This document shows positions 5,330 through 35,820 of a stretch of DNA of 64,000 bases, one piece after another (positions within the stretch are counted from its first letter, which is position 1; each line of letters begins with the position of its first letter). The notes under the pieces are model-generated. The model worked only from the letters and a program-made list of their open reading frames with translations. It ran no database searches and was not told where the DNA came from. Made by a program: the position numbers and the translations under genes. The DNA comes from Patescibacteria group bacterium (lineage in GTDB: Bacteria > Patescibacteriota > Doudnabacteria > UBA920), in the NCBI GenBank assembly GCA_013387205.1, contig WARV01000001.1, positions 86 to 64,085 of the forward strand, in the 5' to 3' direction.

Positions 5330-5550
5330 GGTTTGGGAAAAATAGGATAGGTAAGACATTACGGACTTTTAGTAAGTTTAAAGAAATGCGAGCATATAAA
5401 TGCGATAGATGTGGAAAGTATCATTTAACAAGCCAAACAAGATTTAATCCAGTATATAATAGGTGATTTATGTGGTATAAGATTTTGATTCCCATACTAG
5501 CAGTAATAATCGGATGGATATTAGGAAAATTAAGTTTAAAAAATTAGTTT

Positions 5551-5964
5551 ATGGCATATAGGAAGATAAAAAAGAACGGGGAAGCTGCAAAGCCAACTTT
5601 AGGGAAAGGAAAACAACCTAAAGTTTCTTTGGATGTATTTACTAAGGTTACGAACGAATATTTGGAATACTGCGAAAAGAATAAACAAATACCCCTTATT
5701 AAGAAATTGGCGGTTTTATTGGGAATTGACACGGATACGCTTGTGAATTATCGCAAAAAGCCGCATTATTCGGCGATTTTAAAAAGAATTGATGATTTGA
5801 CTGAAATTGCTCTTTTGGAGAAGGGAATTAATGAAAATAAGCCTGTATTTCCTATGTTTTTGTTGAAATCAAAGTTTGGCTACGTTGAACAGCAGTATGT
5901 TAAGGCTGATGTAAGTTTATCCGGTTCGTTAGGTTTTAGCCCTTTACCAAGTAAGAAACGCTAG
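5551..5964 (+). CDS. terS: Phage terminase small subunit
   Basis: HTH-like segment IPLIKKLAVLLGIDTDTLVNYRKK and the FLLKSKFGY motif typical of small terminase subunits. Lies upstream of terL. Confidence 0.7.
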   Translation: MAYRKIKKNGEAAKPTLGKGKQPKVSLDVFTKVTNEYLEYCEKNKQIPLIKKLAVLLGIDTDTLVNYRKKPHYSAILKRIDDLTEIALLEKGINENKPVFPMFLLKSKFGYVEQQYVKADVSLSGSLGFSPLPSKKR

Positions 5965-6251
5965 TATTTACAGGGGTTTTATATACGCGTCGCATAAGGT
6001 GTCTTGGGCGACGCGGGATAATTTGCCCTAGGACAAGAGTAAATACCTGAAACGGCTAATGCATCAGCTTTAGGATAAACGCTTAACCTGGGGGCAAATA
6101 ACAACAATAGGGGGGTATACAAACGTTCACCGGGTGGGGGAACCCCGAATGTCCTTATAGGGACTCCAGTATATAAGTATCTGTCCCCAAATCTAATTTA
6201 ACCCCTAAAAGATTGTAACGCAAGCGTAACAATGTAACGATTCCGTAACAT

Positions 6252-6590: not shown

Positions 6591-8012
6591 ATGGCTAAAC
6601 GGAAGAAAATAGCAATTTGGGAACCCCAGCCAAGACAAGAAGCTGCTTTAGTAAGGGATGAATACGAAATTTTATATGGTGGCGCAAGAGGAGGGGGTAA
6701 GACAGACGCTGGAATTCACTGGCTCCGCTATCCATTAGAAAGCTTTGTTGAATCCTGGAAGAAGCGTTCCCCGCTAGTTAGCTCTTTGGCAAGATACAAG
6801 GCATTAGTTATTAGAAGGAATGTTAATGATTTAAGCGATTGGTTGGATAGGGCGGAGTATTGGTATAAGAAAATTTACGGGAATTTTGTTACTTTTACCG
6901 GCAAACCCGTAGAAATAAAGTTTTTTGAAGGAGTAGATCCTGCAGCTTGTCCGACAATAAAAACCGGACACTTAAAAGACGAAGACGCTTACCAGAAATA
7001 TCAGGGACACGAATACCAAAGGCAGGTTATCGAAGAATTGACGCAGATAGCGGATATTAGGAATTACGAAAACTTAATAATGTCCTGCCGTTCCACTATT
7101 CCAGAAATCCAGCCCCAAGTTTTTTCCACGACAAACCCCGATGGCCCAGGATTCTACTGGGTGAAAAAAAGATTTTCTATCCCCGATTATCCTGGTAACA
7201 ATCCGATTGAAACGGTTGAAGACGTAAAAATGCCCGATGGGTCAGTAAAACAAATAAGAAGGGTGTTTGTAAAGTCTTTACTTTCCGATAACCGCAAACT
7301 TGACGAAGCTAATCCGAGTTACCGGGTGAACCTGGCTTCCATGTCTGACGAAGCCAAAAAAAGAGCCTGGTTAGAAGGTTACTGGGGCGAACCGATTATC
7401 GAGGGAGTAATTTACGAGAAAGAAATGAAGCAAGCCAGGTTTGACGGACGAATAGGAGAAGTTCCCTGGGACACCACAAAACCTGTTTACACCTATTGGG
7501 ATATTGGACGTGATGCGACCCCGATTTGGTTTGTGCAGTTTGTAGGTCACGCCATCCATTTTATAGATTTTTACGAGGCCAGTAATCAGGATTTAGCACA
7601 TTTTGCACAAGTTTTAAGAAGCAAGCCTTACTGGTATGGCGGACATTTTGGGCCTCATGACCTTTCGCACAAGAACATGGCTGGGGCGTCAACCTGGAGT
7701 TTAGCCCAAGATTTTGGGATAGTTTTTCAAACCCCTTTAGGTAAGGATTCAATCTCCGACGGGATTGAGATGGTTAAGTCCAAGTTTTCTAGATTCAAAT
7801 TTGACGCTAATAAATGCGTTGAGGGGATTAAGCGATTAAGTGCTTACCGCCGGGAACACGACGACGAAAAGAATGTTTTTAAGGACATTCCCGTACACGA
7901 TTGGGCTTCTCACGCATCCGACGCTTTGAGGTATATGGCAATGGCTCCCGAACCATTGGAACCAGGAGCATTAGACCAAAATTTTAATTTATACACAACT
8001 AAGTATAACTAA
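6591..8012 (+). CDS. terL: Phage terminase large subunit
   Basis: Walker A motif YGGARGGGKT and a C-terminal nuclease-like region. The track starts at 6543; the internal MAKRKK at 6591 is the likelier start. Confidence 0.85.
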   Translation: MAKRKKIAIWEPQPRQEAALVRDEYEILYGGARGGGKTDAGIHWLRYPLESFVESWKKRSPLVSSLARYKALVIRRNVNDLSDWLDRAEYWYKKIYGNFVTFTGKPVEIKFFEGVDPAACPTIKTGHLKDEDAYQKYQGHEYQRQVIEELTQIADIRNYENLIMSCRSTIPEIQPQVFSTTNPDGPGFYWVKKRFSIPDYPGNNPIETVEDVKMPDGSVKQIRRVFVKSLLSDNRKLDEANPSYRVNLASMSDEAKKRAWLEGYWGEPIIEGVIYEKEMKQARFDGRIGEVPWDTTKPVYTYWDIGRDATPIWFVQFVGHAIHFIDFYEASNQDLAHFAQVLRSKPYWYGGHFGPHDLSHKNMAGASTWSLAQDFGIVFQTPLGKDSISDGIEMVKSKFSRFKFDANKCVEGIKRLSAYRREHDDEKNVFKDIPVHDWASHASDALRYMAMAPEPLEPGALDQNFNLYTTKYN

Positions 8013-25032: not shown

Positions 25033-25752
25033 TTAATTATTAACTGGTATTACTTGGTTAGTGATAGTATTGATGAACTTAAAATTTCTCAAGATAATTT
25101 GTGCGTCGGTAATTCCCGTGTAGTTTGGTATCATTGGCAATCTGACTTCACCAGAAAGCTTGTCAGTAGTAACGACAACCTTTTGATTTAAATTGTTTAC
25201 TGGTGCGATATCAATATTTGCTTGAATGAAATTATTATTCTGTATTCCATTAACCAGTACATACGGATTAGGCAAAATACCGGGTTTTAAACTAACCAAT
25301 GCATCAAAAGTTAAAGTGTTGTAACCCTCGGTATTTTCTTTGTTACTGGAGCAAGTATAAGTTCCGCCAACATTAAAATATGTAGTCTGACAATGGAATA
25401 CTAAAGGAGTAGTGACTGGCGTGGTGGTCTGGTTGGATGACGGAGTTTCAACTGTACCTGCCGGTTGAGGAACATACACAGGGACATAAACAGTTTCGGG
25501 TGTTGATTGCGGAACAGGAGATTGTCCAGAAGTTTGAGGTAGAGAACCTAAGCCTAAAGCTTGCCTAGTAGTAACTGTACCATCTTTCTTTAAGCACTCG
25601 CTATTCATAAAACAGATATATTGCGGTTCGGTAATTGAAACAGTAGTGTCAAAGATATTTCCGTCCAAAAATCCCATTAAAGCAGCTTTCGCAGGAGTAT
25701 ATATAGTGAAACCTAAAATAGCAAAAACCGCATAAAACAATGTTTTTTTCAT
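25033..25752 (-). CDS. Secreted protein with signal peptide and Thr/Pro-rich linker (moron on the opposite strand)
   Basis: N-terminal MKKTLFYAVFAILGFTIYTPAKA signal-like segment. It is the only minus-strand gene within the phage late region. Confidence 0.55.
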   Translation of the reverse strand: MKKTLFYAVFAILGFTIYTPAKAALMGFLDGNIFDTTVSITEPQYICFMNSECLKKDGTVTTRQALGLGSLPQTSGQSPVPQSTPETVYVPVYVPQPAGTVETPSSNQTTTPVTTPLVFHCQTTYFNVGGTYTCSSNKENTEGYNTLTFDALVSLKPGILPNPYVLVNGIQNNNFIQANIDIAPVNNLNQKVVVTTDKLSGEVRLPMIPNYTGITDAQIILRNFKFINTITNQVIPVNN

Positions 25753-25917
25753 AAATTTGTTTTAGTTAATTGACAATTTAGTTATAGACCCAATTAATTA
25801 TTTTGTCAAATTTAAAAGGGGCCTCTCGCTGAGTAAGCAGCGATTAGCCCATAAGACTAACCCATCTGCTTACTCAGACGTTACCCATAACTTATACCTA
25901 ATTAAATTTCTTGTCAA

Positions 25918-31777: not shown

Positions 31778-32536
31778 ATGAAGTATTTAGAAAGTGCCAT
31801 TGACCAACCAGAGGCGTATATTATCCCAATAGGGGACTGCCATATTGGAGATAGGGCTTTTGGGAAAAGAGGATTAAAACTATTACAGGGGTATCTTGAT
31901 TGGGTTAAGGAACATAAAAACGCCAGGATATTCTTAAACGGAGATATTTTTAATTGCGCTTCCAGGAATTCCAAGACTTCACCTTTTGAAACTGATAGTG
32001 ACGAATACCAAAGAGCCATAGATATATTTAAGCCTTACGCTTCGCAGATTATTGGGGCAAATGACGGAAACCATGAAGCCCGGATGTTCGACGAGTTCGG
32101 CGTTTCCCCTTTAGCATTTTTCTGCCGGGAGCTATCCATACCTTATTGCAAATATTCAGCGGTAGTTAGGTTGATGGTTGGAAAGCGTAACACGCAAGGA
32201 TATAGGGAAGATTACTATTTATATTTTCACCACACGACAGGGGGCGGTGGTAGCCTTGGCAGTAAACTCAATAGGGTCGTTAAATTGAGGGATATTGTCG
32301 AGGGGATAGATGTTTATGTCGGCTCGCATAACCACACTTTAATTACTGCACCACAAGAAGTATATTATCCAACGCAACACGGGGTTCAGAAAAGGCAAAT
32401 TTGGCACGTTGACGCCGGTTCATTTTTGGAATACGAAGACACTTATGCGGAAAAGGGGATGTTGCCGCCATCAAAATTAGGAAGTCCCCGCTTAAGGTTT
32501 GATAGCAAAAAGCATGACGTTCACGTTTCAATATAA
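31778..32536 (+). CDS. Calcineurin-like metallophosphoesterase (phage Ser/Thr phosphatase-like)
   Basis: Motifs IGDCHIGD, NGDIFN and GNHE. Histidines present downstream. Confidence 0.75.
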   Translation: MKYLESAIDQPEAYIIPIGDCHIGDRAFGKRGLKLLQGYLDWVKEHKNARIFLNGDIFNCASRNSKTSPFETDSDEYQRAIDIFKPYASQIIGANDGNHEARMFDEFGVSPLAFFCRELSIPYCKYSAVVRLMVGKRNTQGYREDYYLYFHHTTGGGGSLGSKLNRVVKLRDIVEGIDVYVGSHNHTLITAPQEVYYPTQHGVQKRQIWHVDAGSFLEYEDTYAEKGMLPPSKLGSPRLRFDSKKHDVHVSI

Positions 32537-32631
32537 ATTTATGGAAGATTCACCACTACATTTTAAACTTACAGACCACGACCCGATTACGGAAGAAGAT
32601 TTAAAATTTGAACCATTAAACGAAGGAGAGG

Positions 32632-33120
32632 ATGATTAATATGGAAGAAAAATTTTTACATTCCAAAGCTCTTTCACCCAATCCCAAAGACTTGCTTGGC
32701 ATGAAAAAGGTATCTATTACCAAAGTTCCAGCTACCGCACTTGCTCATTGCGCTCATGCCATGATGAATGGGGCTGATAAGTACGGAGCGTATAATTGGC
32801 GTGACAAAGCTGTATATGCTTCTATTTACGTTGACGCCTGTTTCCGTCACCTAACGGCCTGGTTTGAAGGTGAAGAAATTGCAACTGATTCCAAAGTTCA
32901 CCATTTAGGACACGCTATGGCTTGTCTGGCAATTATTCTTGACGCCAAAGAAACTGGCAACTTAATTGACGACAGGCCGGTAAACGACCAATCGCGCGGC
33001 GCATATACCAAGGTTTTAGCTGGAATGAATGAAAAGTTTACAGCTAACAAGGACTTAAAAGAGCAAATTATGGAAGAATGGGCTGACAGTGAAGCCTGCC
33101 AAAAACTAGCGGATAAATAA
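32632..33120 (+). CDS. Hypothetical phage protein. Weak resemblance to the phage dATP/dGTP pyrophosphohydrolase N-terminal-type domain (KYGAYNWRD).
   Basis: ORF track entry. Motif recalled from memory and not verified. Confidence 0.3.
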   Translation: MINMEEKFLHSKALSPNPKDLLGMKKVSITKVPATALAHCAHAMMNGADKYGAYNWRDKAVYASIYVDACFRHLTAWFEGEEIATDSKVHHLGHAMACLAIILDAKETGNLIDDRPVNDQSRGAYTKVLAGMNEKFTANKDLKEQIMEEWADSEACQKLADK

Positions 33121-33746: not shown

Positions 33747-34020
33747 GAAACATAAAAGTTTTTTTGACGTTTTAATATACGATTTGACAGCTTTTTAAAA
33801 TAGGCGTATACCTAAGACATAATAAACTAAATAACCACTTATAACCTGTTAAATCGGGTTGCCCCAAATAAAGGGGGCTTGCGGATAAGTGATCAGACTA
33901 AAGGCCATTATTTGTGATACAATAAGAGCCTAGCCCTAAGTTTGGAAACAAAAATAGTGGCCAAAATTCTGTCTGTCACCATAAAGCCCGCAAGCTGAGT
34001 GGTTGGCAGGCAGTTTTTTT

Positions 34021-34890
34021 ATGAACAACGCGATTGTTACTTATTTGGAGTGGAAGGGGATAGCCCATGAGAGAGCATCTAAAGCCTATATAAAACCATT
34101 ACACAGGCTGGCTGAATATTTAAACAAAAAAGTTAGTGAACTTACTACGGATGATGTAAAAAAGTTCCTCAAATATTTAAAAGAGGAGCTTCCCAAGCTG
34201 TCTACAAGGGGGGATTGGCGCACAAACTTTTATTTCCATACGAATGTCATCCGTGATTTTATTAAACATTGGAATGATGAGGGGGTGTGTAATGTAAGGC
34301 CAGGAATTATCGAGGTTCCCAAGTACAGTTTCAACCCTTACCCATCGGTTACTATTGAAGAATTTGAGATGATGGATGATTATCTAGCCACCGAGCCAGA
34401 CAATTTTGCCAATCTTCAGAAACGGATGATTATACACTTTTTATGGTGGACGGGCGTTAGGGTATCAGAGCTTACCGATTTAAGATGGACTATTATTAAC
34501 CAATCCGAGCAGGGATTACCAATAAAAAATAAAAAGAACGGTGATATCAGATATATATTTTGGCCACCCCAAACCCACTTACTGCTTTTAAGATTTATCA
34601 GGGAAAGAAAACAGTTTACTGGGAATAGCCTATTAGTGACTTACCTGGGGAAAATGCACCCTCGCTGTGTCCAAAGGTTTTTAGAAAATTTAGGGAAAAA
34701 ACTGGGGATAACTTACCACCTATCACCACACTGTTTTCGTCAGGGTTGGGCAAAATATAGGTTGGAAAAGGGGGCGGATCTAAAACTAATAAAAGACGGA
34801 TTAGGCCACACTTCTTACGATTCTACGGACAGATACTTAATACTAAATTATAAACTGCAAAGGGAAAGAGCGGTGAAATATTTGACATAA
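34021..34890 (+). CDS. int: Tyrosine site-specific recombinase (phage integrase)
   Basis: Catalytic residues in context: TGVRVSEL (Arg), HCFRQGWA (His-x-x-Arg), LGHTSYDSTDRYL (His, Tyr). The track starts at 34003; ATG 34021 is preferred. Confidence 0.85.
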   Translation: MNNAIVTYLEWKGIAHERASKAYIKPLHRLAEYLNKKVSELTTDDVKKFLKYLKEELPKLSTRGDWRTNFYFHTNVIRDFIKHWNDEGVCNVRPGIIEVPKYSFNPYPSVTIEEFEMMDDYLATEPDNFANLQKRMIIHFLWWTGVRVSELTDLRWTIINQSEQGLPIKNKKNGDIRYIFWPPQTHLLLLRFIRERKQFTGNSLLVTYLGKMHPRCVQRFLENLGKKLGITYHLSPHCFRQGWAKYRLEKGADLKLIKDGLGHTSYDSTDRYLILNYKLQRERAVKYLT

Positions 34891-34919
34891 GGTGTTAGTG
34901 GTATTATGATTAGGTTAAT

Positions 34920-35075
34920 ATGGCTTATCCAAAAAACGAAGAACGAAATAAAGACTTGGTGAAGAAGCGTAAAAAAGACCCTAAGAAATGGACGTGGGGA
35001 GCTTTAGCTAAACATTTCCGAGTGGCTCGCCCTACCGCTGTTCAAATTTATAAGCGATGGGAGCATATTTATTAA
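34920..35075 (+). CDS. Small basic HTH-like protein (51 aa; Xis/regulator candidate)
   Basis: Hand translation gives MAYPKNEERNKDLVKKRKKDPKKWTWGALAKHFRVARPTAVQIYKRWEHIY. Sits immediately after int. Confidence 0.35.
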   Translation: MAYPKNEERNKDLVKKRKKDPKKWTWGALAKHFRVARPTAVQIYKRWEHIY

Positions 35076-35100
35076 TTGTTAGTGCTTGTGGATAACTTTC

Positions 35101-35129
35101 TTGACAAGTGTTAGTGCTTGGTATATAAT
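35101..35129 (+). promoter_or_regulatory. Perfect consensus sigma70 promoter, TTGACA-17 nt-TATAAT
   Basis: TTGACA at 35101-35106 and TATAAT at 35124-35129 with an exact 17-nt spacer. The spacer contains one copy of the 12-bp direct repeat TGTTAGTGCTTG (35078-35089 and 35110-35121). Confidence 0.55.
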
Positions 35130-35312
35130 ATAAATACCACTGAAAAAAATCCCTCGAACCTTGAAAATCCCATATCAATAAACAGTCTGGTTGGTTTAAC
35201 CCCTAGAACCTTGTTTATTGCTTAAAAACGCCTTACCCCGCCCCTTTTGTGGCGGGGAATGAGAATAATATCGCGTCGGACAATGTATGTTGCGCGACAT
35301 GGAAGATAAATA

Positions 35313-35345
35313 AAGCGCACGGGGAGTGCGCTTTTAATTTTTTTG
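35313..35345 (+). terminator. Intrinsic terminator (AGCGCAC-GGGGA-GTGCGCT followed by TTTAATTTTTTT)
   Basis: 7-bp GC stem plus a T-run, ~190 nt downstream of the consensus promoter. Confidence 0.55.
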
Positions 35346-35567
35346 ATATCCGATACTTTTTGATTAATTGATTAAATGATTATCTGATTTGCTGATTATT
35401 ATTTTCTACTGATCTTAAATGTCATTGTTAACCACTATTCTCTTTAATTATGTATGGTTAAATATGCTAATACTGTTAATTACAGCAATACGCCATAAAT
35501 AAAGAGTATTTGTCAAATGTGTATAGCCTCTCCCCTATATTCAATGTAAAAATATATAAATAAAAAT

Positions 35568-35625: not shown

Positions 35626-35820
35626 TTACAAACCAATTCTTAAAAATTCTCCCTGAACTTTGGAAACCGAAACCTGGTTCCATTCGCCGGGTTGATTCCG
35701 CTGGGAAATTTCCATTCCCGAATCAGGCAGAAAGCGCTCCAGCCTGAACACTCCGACGGTGGTCCGAAAGACTGTACCCGGGTTGAATACCCTGATAATG
35801 TTGTAAAGCTTTGGGTCCAT
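35626..35820 (-). CDS. Hypothetical small protein (64 aa)
   Basis: Strong SD (AGGAGGAAAA) immediately before the ATG on the minus strand. Confidence 0.4.
   Translation of the reverse strand: MDPKLYNIIRVFNPGTVFRTTVGVFRLERFLPDSGMEISQRNQPGEWNQVSVSKVQGEFLRIGL

Follow-up and report, generated by a model that had tools for sequence, protein, structure and literature searches.

The 64,000-nt stretch of DNA analysed here (hereafter, the window; contig WARV01000001.1 of the Patescibacteria group bacterium assembly GCA_013387205.1, positions 86 to 64,085) holds phage DNA on its left and host DNA on its right. Positions 1 to ~35100 are occupied by a tailed prophage with nearly all of its genes on the plus strand, including, according to PHROG/Pfam matches, those for an HNH endonuclease, TerS, TerL, a tape measure protein, a tail fibre and an integrase. 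From 35933 rightward follow host genes (an SLT/pilin-like protein, an M23 peptidase, gltX, def, fmt, queA), which right of the junction lie on the minus strand, i.e., opposite to the promoter P2 described below; this flank is that of a Patescibacteria, Doudnabacteria-like bacterium. A first-pass annotation had proposed that the interval between the two parts, 35101-35345, encodes a prophage small RNA (sRNA) of ~200 nt, started by a perfect promoter and closed by a strong terminator. The present analysis indicates that this interval is probably the right junction (attR) of the tailed prophage, which extends over at least 35 kb, and that it is a composite of phage and host DNA with no self-contained RNA gene.

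The promoter, P2 (35101..35129, plus strand), has the sequence TTGACA-17-TATAAT and points out of the prophage. It is the sole 12/12 match to the sigma70 consensus in the window, where sites with at most one mismatch number 4 vs. 0.51 expected (0/100 shuffles). It is followed on the same strand by a phage-derived 5' leader (35136..35274, the P arm of the attachment site) harboring the direct repeats CCCTCGAACCTTG (35151-35163) and CCCTAGAACCTTG (35201-35213), 50 nt apart, as well as hairpin 1 (35176-35219) and hairpin 2 (35236-35257, CCCCGCC / GGCGGGG). Next comes a palindrome at 35275..35298 and, 13 nt beyond it, on the host side, an intrinsic terminator (35312..35345) composed of a 9-bp G+C-rich stem (35312-35334) and a T-run to 35345; the terminator is bidirectional, since it also scores on the minus strand. 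The consensus promoter, the repeats (a two-copy 13-mer being weak evidence by itself), hairpin 2 and the terminator had all been recognized in the first-pass annotation and stood up to scrutiny, as did the statement that no open reading frame (ORF) with a ribosome-binding site (RBS) follows the promoter: the transcript holds no RBS-bearing ORF, and neither a leader peptide nor a small ORF conserved among the homologues was found in it. Left unmentioned were the third hairpin, at 35275-35298, and a 51-aa helix-turn-helix (HTH) ORF with its own promoter, P1, a twin of P2.

The third hairpin is a 9-6-9 palindrome, GTCGGACAA TGTATG TTGCGCGAC, i.e., two inverted arms around a 6-bp centre, and it is unique in the window. 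Inverted arms around an overlap of 6-8 bp are the usual anatomy of the core sites of tyrosine recombinases. In related phages the same core is far better conserved than its surroundings (22/24 in L011, 17/24 in L002). It also recurs in three host relatives, represented by contigs L016, L030 and L031/L032, where the order M23 - SLT - gap (with the site) - convergent aminotransferase (Aminotran_5) is kept. In each of them the best match of the whole locus falls in this syntenic gap, collinear with the window: GTCGCACAATGTATCTTATGCGAC in L030 (20/24 vs. the window), GTCGTACAAGGTAACTTTTGCGAC in L031/L032 (18/24) and GTCGCATAATGTATCTAATACGAC in L016 (17/24). The L030 site sits in a gap of 91 nt without a prophage and thus represents an empty attB. 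From the empty host sites and the copies in other phages it is concluded that 35275-35298 is the attR core, i.e., the crossover site of the integrase; by its sequence it is a dif-like host site targeted by the phage's own Xer-like enzyme. Across the sites the arms vary without compensation, as expected of DNA bound by a protein rather than of an RNA hairpin under selection. No tRNA or tmRNA that could serve as the integration target was found by ARAGORN across the 64-kb window.

The DNA on the two sides of the core appears to be of different origin. On the left, 35074-35274 is phage DNA, holding P2 and the leader. On the right, a block at 35470..35518 is conserved with the host relative L016 (77.6% over 49 nt, E = 0.003, collinear), in which the matching stretch lies between the site and the SLT gene; this similarity identifies the right flank as host. 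The terminator at 35312-35345, right of the core as well, is therefore probably host DNA, too, brought next to P2 by integration. The host gap at 35346-35567 is AT-rich, with five TGATT(A) repeats at 35359-35398 and a minus-strand promoter-like site at 35425-35398. A host minus-strand RNA of ~80 nt could face the attachment site and share the bidirectional terminator (35334-35312).

The dif-like character of the core can be traced beyond this locus. The L016 site shares the 12-nt CGCATAATGTAT with the dif sequence of E. coli, GGTGCGCATAATGTATATTATGTTAAAT (PMC3025954). A degenerate pattern of the site was detected in 28 viral contigs (L034-L060 and L015) with unrelated flanks; by a rough estimate, a handful of matches at most would be expected by chance. 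The 25 distinct sites among them mirror the other arm at positions left free by the pattern (e.g., T at position 19 in 22/25), and the resulting 28-bp consensus, GTCGCACAA TGTATN TTGTGCGAC, is palindromic and non-random. About half of these sites are found no more than 800 nt from the end of a contig. Within the contig DNA examined, a Xer-like integrase is encoded by just one of the 28, which suggests that these phages mimic the target of the host Xer machinery and exploit it. The window prophage has a Xer-like integrase of its own, so reliance on the host Xer does not apply to it. Convergent genes flank the site in all host loci; GC skew, computed over 13-29 kb, gave no placement of the replication terminus, and no host xer gene was found in the window.

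The integrase in question is a Xer-like tyrosine recombinase encoded at 34021..34890 on the plus strand (289 aa from an ATG, with an alternative TTG start at 34003). Its gene ends 385 bp upstream of the core, at the prophage/host boundary. The protein matches Pfam Phage_integrase (3e-19), Phage_int_SAM_4 and PHROG integrase families and lacks an arm-binding N-terminal extension. Among 5.8 billion proteins there are only three close relatives (P0002-P0004, 43-49% identity); the next-best matches, some of them annotated as XerC, show ~29% identity. No close relative turned up in viral or genome contigs, metagenome contigs gave matches of 29% identity only, and GenBank phages contain no relevant DNA similar to the region.

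The 51-aa basic HTH ORF lies at 34920..35075 on the plus strand, between the integrase gene and P2. It displays a weak match to HTH_23, and its AlphaFold model is a three-helix bundle with a predicted local distance difference test (pLDDT) score of 81; the fold matches are generic HTH DNA-binding domains, none of them significant. Homologues occupy the same position in L001 (60% identity) and L018 (84%). Encoded between the two promoters, the protein is the candidate binder of the sequence boxes discussed below, be it Cro-, Xis- or repressor-like.

Relatives of the integrase and of the small ORF led to four further modules, namely L001, L011, L002 (= L003) and L018 (= L019, L020), one of which (84% identity) was added by the search with the small ORF to those of the three integrase relatives. 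All five modules share one plan: an integrase, P1, a small HTH ORF, a near-consensus P2 and a non-coding leader of 190-210 nt. The homologous P2 promoters score 12/12 (L001), 11/12 (L011 and L018) and 10/12 (L002); their -35 and -10 hexamers are kept with a spacing of 16-18 nt and the rest of the sequence diverges. According to tblastn, the modules share no genes beyond the integrase and the small ORF, and the tyrosine recombinase of L018 differs from those of the others. L001 and L011 are cut by contig ends; L002 and L018 are flanked by phage genes on both sides and hence represent unintegrated forms. The cuts in the Logan contigs L011 (end 1879) and L001 (end 4172) fall within 4 nt of the attachment core, just after it in L011 and just before its expected start in L001; such breaks are expected where integrated and free forms coexist.

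The two unintegrated modules show what the leader may do when phage DNA continues beyond the core. Both leaders fold strongly (z -5.78 in L002 and -3.08 in L018), and in both a 12-nt upstream strand, A, is perfectly complementary to a strand, B, overlapping the 5' half of a terminator (A/B at 7186-7197 / 7322-7333 in L002 and at 915-926 / 1047-1058 in L018). A complement of this length was reached in 0/5000 shuffles. The A:B duplex is computed at -19.9 / -23.6 kcal/mol vs. -11.2 / -13.1 for the terminator (L002 / L018); in the computation, the A:B helix forms in the nascent RNA, and the terminator is restored when A is blocked. Mutually exclusive pairings at the terminator, the mark of an attenuator, are thus present in L002 and L018 and missing from the window, where the longest upstream complement of the 5' half of the terminator is 6 nt, a chance-level value reached in 2420/5000 shuffles; in this the window terminator differs from the phage-borne ones of L002 and L018, which is in line with its probable host origin. 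A consensus scan found no promoter-like site between the terminator and the next co-oriented phage ORFs of L002 and L018. The attachment core of L002 lies between A and B, so that integration would separate the two strands.

The control of this transcription unit can be approached from the comparison of the two promoters. P1 (TTGACA-17-TATGAT, 11/12; 34882..34910, plus strand) overlaps the stop codon of the integrase gene with its -35 hexamer and precedes the 51-aa HTH gene; the arrangement is the same in L018, L011 and L002. The 35-kb prophage has four plus-strand sites scoring at least 10/12, of which P1 and P2, both located at the right extremity and directed outward, are the only ones apparently situated outside ORFs. 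A GTTAGTG box lies in the P1 spacer (34894-34900), and further copies on the same strand are found upstream of P2 (TTGTTAGTGCTTG, 35076-35088) and in its spacer (GTGTTAGTGCTTG, 35108-35120). In each phage the box is common to P1 and P2, and it differs among the phages: the spacer box is GTGTTAGTGCTTGG in the window, TGTTAGTGCTTGG (P1) and GTGTTAGCGGTTGG (P2) in L018, GTGTTAACC in L001, TAATGTGACA in L011 and ACCGCTTGCTAA in L002, the exception to the divergence being the window and its close relative L018, which carry nearly the same box. A box shared by the two promoters and differing by phage suggests an operator that has co-evolved with a phage-specific regulator. Likely, P1 and P2 are jointly controlled by one DNA-binding protein, most simply by the 51-aa HTH protein. 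Scanning with the box pattern otherwise returned chance matches in coding DNA only.

A perfect DnaA box, TGTGGATAA, is located at 35087-35095 on the plus strand, 5 nt upstream of the -35 hexamer of P2. Such a box occurs 5-7 nt upstream of this hexamer in four of the five modules (3990-3998 in L001, ~1673-1681 in L011, ~7091-7099 with 8/9 in L002) and is absent in L018; in the window as a whole, DnaA boxes are not enriched (3 vs. 1.84 expected). The combination of DnaA box, TTGACAA and -10 hexamer was considered as a marker of the phage family and rejected, as it matches seven unrelated viral contigs (L004-L010), where it stands ahead of protein genes, often with 2-3 boxes. The pattern may reflect DnaA-dependent control of phage promoters.

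As to the leader in the window, the whole 210-nt stretch folds better than its shuffles (z -2.99), and the phage-derived 5' 135 nt are structured in the sense orientation only (z -3.02 vs. -0.33 for the antisense); in all four relatives, too, the sense strand has the lower z-score. Four of the five modules retain hairpin 2; among them, one G-C pair is replaced by A-U and one C-G pair by U-G. The structure limited to the sense strand and the changes in hairpin 2 favour, as far as the alignment goes, a role of this part as RNA; conservation is judged here on five sequences, and the single compensatory pair is that in hairpin 2. Rfam 15 yielded nothing at the gathering threshold for the window, nothing relevant at E <= 10 locally and nothing at E <= 0.5 for the four homologous loci. 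A riboswitch was considered and rejected, the leaders of the homologues being devoid of a conserved core. The reading of hairpin 2 as a minus-strand terminator in L001/L011 is given little weight: a U run is visible by eye (GGGG-CAUUUUUU), and the terminator scan makes no call.

The explanation preferred here, to which a probability of roughly 0.58 is assigned, is that P2 starts a phage operon cut by integration, the interval being the composite phage/host attR. P2 is predicted to be a maximal-strength promoter of the sigma70 type and a main rightward promoter of the circular phage, whose transcript would enter the 24-bp dif-like palindrome ~140 nt downstream. In the circular phage, P2 would read over attP, and the leader would continue to a conditional phage terminator; once an antiterminator helix overcomes this terminator, phage genes without a promoter of their own would be expressed. 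Integration would sever P2 and the first half of the leader from the genes they serve. In the lysogen, the transcript would be stopped by the predicted bidirectional terminator of the host 13 nt past the core, leaving a chimeric dead-end RNA of ~210 nt, a discrete transcript to be expected if P2 is active there; excision would restore the operon.

Several points weigh against this reconstruction. The host assignment of the terminator draws on its position and on a single 49-nt match ~170 nt further right, and no match directly assigns 35299-35469 to either host or phage. The relatives with empty sites are distant (45-57% identity in the neighbouring protein, 57% in the closest), none belonging to the same species. 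The left attachment site (attL) was not found in the window, in which there is no repeat of at least 11 nt and no second core, the left end of the prophage lying outside it. No attachment core was identified in L018, and the right arm of the L002 core (17/24) is degenerate. The split-leader model is carried over to the window from L002 and L018 by analogy, and the window leader shares only short motifs with theirs; the sense-specific structure of the P arm could suit an sRNA as well. Finally, that the promoters are active, that the HTH protein regulates them and that transcription ends as described are predictions from sequence.

A related proposal, put forward tentatively and regarded as improbable, ascribes to the leader the function of an RNA switch that reads the integration state. 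The antiterminator strands would flank the crossover point, so the read-through fold could form only in the excised circle, and the prophage form would make a truncated transcript ended by the host terminator; the switch would be coupled to a dif-like site mimicked by many phages of Patescibacteria.

The sRNA proposed initially, in the sense of a stand-alone, trans-acting prophage RNA of ~210 nt made from P2 and acting on host or phage mRNAs or on defence, is considered unlikely, even though much of what it was built on holds. The promoter is of consensus strength and conserved (10-12/12 in the four relatives), the region is non-coding, its 5' part is sense-structured in all five modules, of the two changes in hairpin 2 one is compensatory and the other a wobble, and the stable 3' terminator hairpin would protect the RNA. 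What did not hold is the unity of the gene: the 3' third consists of the attachment core and probable host DNA, so that the whole is not passed on as a single gene, and promoter and terminator are probably not parts of one conserved sRNA gene. Joint inheritance of the two is not seen among the relatives, in which P2 is conserved and the modules end differently; their leaders, moreover, show strong divergence in sequence and in the 3' portions. In the unintegrated relatives the transcript behaves as a leader, running into a conditional terminator with phage genes behind it. Rfam offers no match, a target could not be named, and the boxes in the spacer suggest that P2 may be repressed.

It is still less probable that the locus works at the level of DNA as a recombination arm, with the hexamers, boxes, repeats and hairpins binding the integrase, the HTH protein as a directionality factor, and host bending proteins, and with transcription being irrelevant or modulating. 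The region does adjoin the integrase gene and the core, it carries three boxes in the same orientation within 230 bp and direct repeats 50 bp apart, and a small HTH gene beside int is in the usual place of an excisionase. However, the integrase belongs to the Xer-like enzymes, which use simple sites, and it is devoid of an arm-binding domain. Nor would a recombination arm account for near-perfect hexamers kept with a spacing of 16-18 nt in five modules, for the strand-specific structure, or for the terminator-overlapping complements in L002 and L018, which make sense only in RNA.

That P2 serves as an outward promoter altering host expression (lysogenic conversion), by read-out or antisense, is very improbable. 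It points into host DNA with genes on the opposite strand, and the possible host minus-strand transcript shares the bidirectional terminator, but this strong terminator follows 13 nt after the core, and in unintegrated phages the conserved module faces phage genes instead. The least credible proposal is a phage replication origin or primer transcript, with a promoter beside a DnaA box, structured RNA and AT-rich DNA: the perfect DnaA box that precedes the -35 hexamer by 5 nt, kept in L001, L011 and (8/9) L002, and the AT-rich stretch with its TGATT(A) repeats would suit it, but that stretch is located beyond the core, in the host flank, L018 has no such box, the window as a whole shows no enrichment of DnaA boxes, and unrelated phages have box and promoter in the same pattern ahead of ordinary protein genes.

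Several further features of the window deserve mention. The palindrome CGCGTCGCATAAGGTGTCTTGGGCGACGCG at 5985-6016, between the TerS and TerL genes, resembles the attachment core (18/24). Its part at 5989-6012 was tried as attL, i.e., the prophage border, and rejected on account of its position between TerS and TerL. In viral contig L015, a copy of the core (5546-5569, 21/24) adjoins a homologous Zn-ribbon ORF and the gene for a small terminase subunit. The window palindrome may serve as another Xer-type site or as a packaging signal, or may simply be a hairpin. The only sizeable minus-strand gene of the prophage (25033-25752, 239 aa, no Pfam/PHROG match) is preceded just upstream by an 11/12 promoter, TTGACA-17-TATAAC (25781-25809, minus strand); its product is a candidate lysogeny repressor. 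Immediately preceding the integrase gene, at 31778-33120 on the plus strand, a metallophosphoesterase and a dATP/dGTP diphosphohydrolase-like protein (PF18909, 2e-25) are encoded. Nucleotide-pool genes of this type are linked to phages with modified bases; no PurZ-like gene was seen among the scanned ORFs. A G+C-rich tandem repeat with units like GGCGGCGAGGTC occupies positions 1-62, at the start of the window, and probably represents the last part of an ORF with repeats that the window edge truncates. On the host side, a 64-aa ORF (35626-35820, minus strand) is equipped with a strong AGGAGG RBS and a terminator of its own (35593-35568); no family matches it, and the syntenic loci of the host relatives contain no homologue.

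Overall, the locus illustrates that a textbook-looking sRNA gene can arise by integration from phage and host parts, a general trap in the annotation of prophage ends. It also offers a testable design, in which the strongest promoter of a phage is, together with half a leader, apparently cut from its genes by integration. The candidate dif-like site of Patescibacteria, a phylum with almost no genetics, is strongly conserved (GTCGCACAA-TGTATN-TTGTGCGAC, in at least 28 viral contigs, most of them without an integrase detected nearby). It could help to find prophage borders, to link phages to their hosts and to locate replication termini.

Among the known systems, the dif/Xer elements, the promoters at the ends of integrative and conjugative elements (ICEs) and the sib and pR'-tR' regions of phage lambda are closest in kind to the present locus; none of them is homologous to it. 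Integrative mobile elements exploiting Xer (IMEX), such as CTXphi and TLCphi, integrate at dif. A dif mimic is carried by Legionella LME-1 (PMC9765430), and dif systems with a single recombinase have been described (PMC5357621). The present site resembles dif in its two inverted arms around a 6-bp centre, in the inner arm and centre (CGCA(C/T)AATGTAT vs. CGCATAATGTAT in E. coli) and in its occurrence as one copy between convergent genes in each host locus examined; the many unrelated viral contigs carrying a mimic, mostly with no recombinase detected nearby, are likewise reminiscent of these elements (cf. LME-1, PMC9765430). Unlike dif, it is almost perfectly palindromic, with GTCG/CGAC ends, and unlike in the dif-integrating elements, a tailed dsDNA prophage with its own Xer-like integrase lies beside it.

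In Tn916, a promoter at the end of the element serves the transfer genes after circularisation. Promoters at element ends are likewise known from ICEKp1, ICEclc and ICEEc1, and that of ICEKp1 acts across the joint after excision (PMC13023037). P2 is similar in being directed outward at the integrated end and in facing, once the element is circular, the genes of the other end, so that expression would depend on integration. The targets differ: it is int in the ICEs and the transfer genes in Tn916, whereas here int precedes the promoter, which is predicted to serve the genes at the left end of the phage. Furthermore, unlike in the ICEs, the attachment core lies here inside a structured leader.

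In phage lambda, sib is an RNA structure beside attP, 3' of int, which acts via RNase III, and the retroregulation of int by sib was reportedly described by Schindler and Echols in 1981. The lambda pR'-tR' unit ("6S") combines a strong constitutive promoter with a terminated leader of ~200 nt ahead of an operon. In its treatment of lambda retroregulation, PMC6379469 cites Schindler and Echols 1981. The present locus is akin to sib in its logic, i.e., integration would part an RNA structure from its partner gene, and the fate of the RNA would differ between the free phage and the prophage; it is akin to pR'-tR' in pairing a strong promoter with a leader of ~200 nt that would be terminated unless termination is overcome. 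There is no sequence or structural homology to either of them, no Q- or N-like antiterminator was identified here, and, unlike sib, the present element has its own promoter downstream of int. Attenuators and riboswitch platforms are matched in L002 and L018, where a 12-nt strand has two possible partners, an upstream segment and the 3' half of the terminator. In contrast to them, there is no conserved aptamer-like core, leader peptide or Rfam match, and the window lacks the alternative pairing. What is novel, as compared with all these systems, is the combination: a tailed phage with its own Xer-like integrase, a dif-like core placed within a leader, and twin consensus promoters bearing operators.

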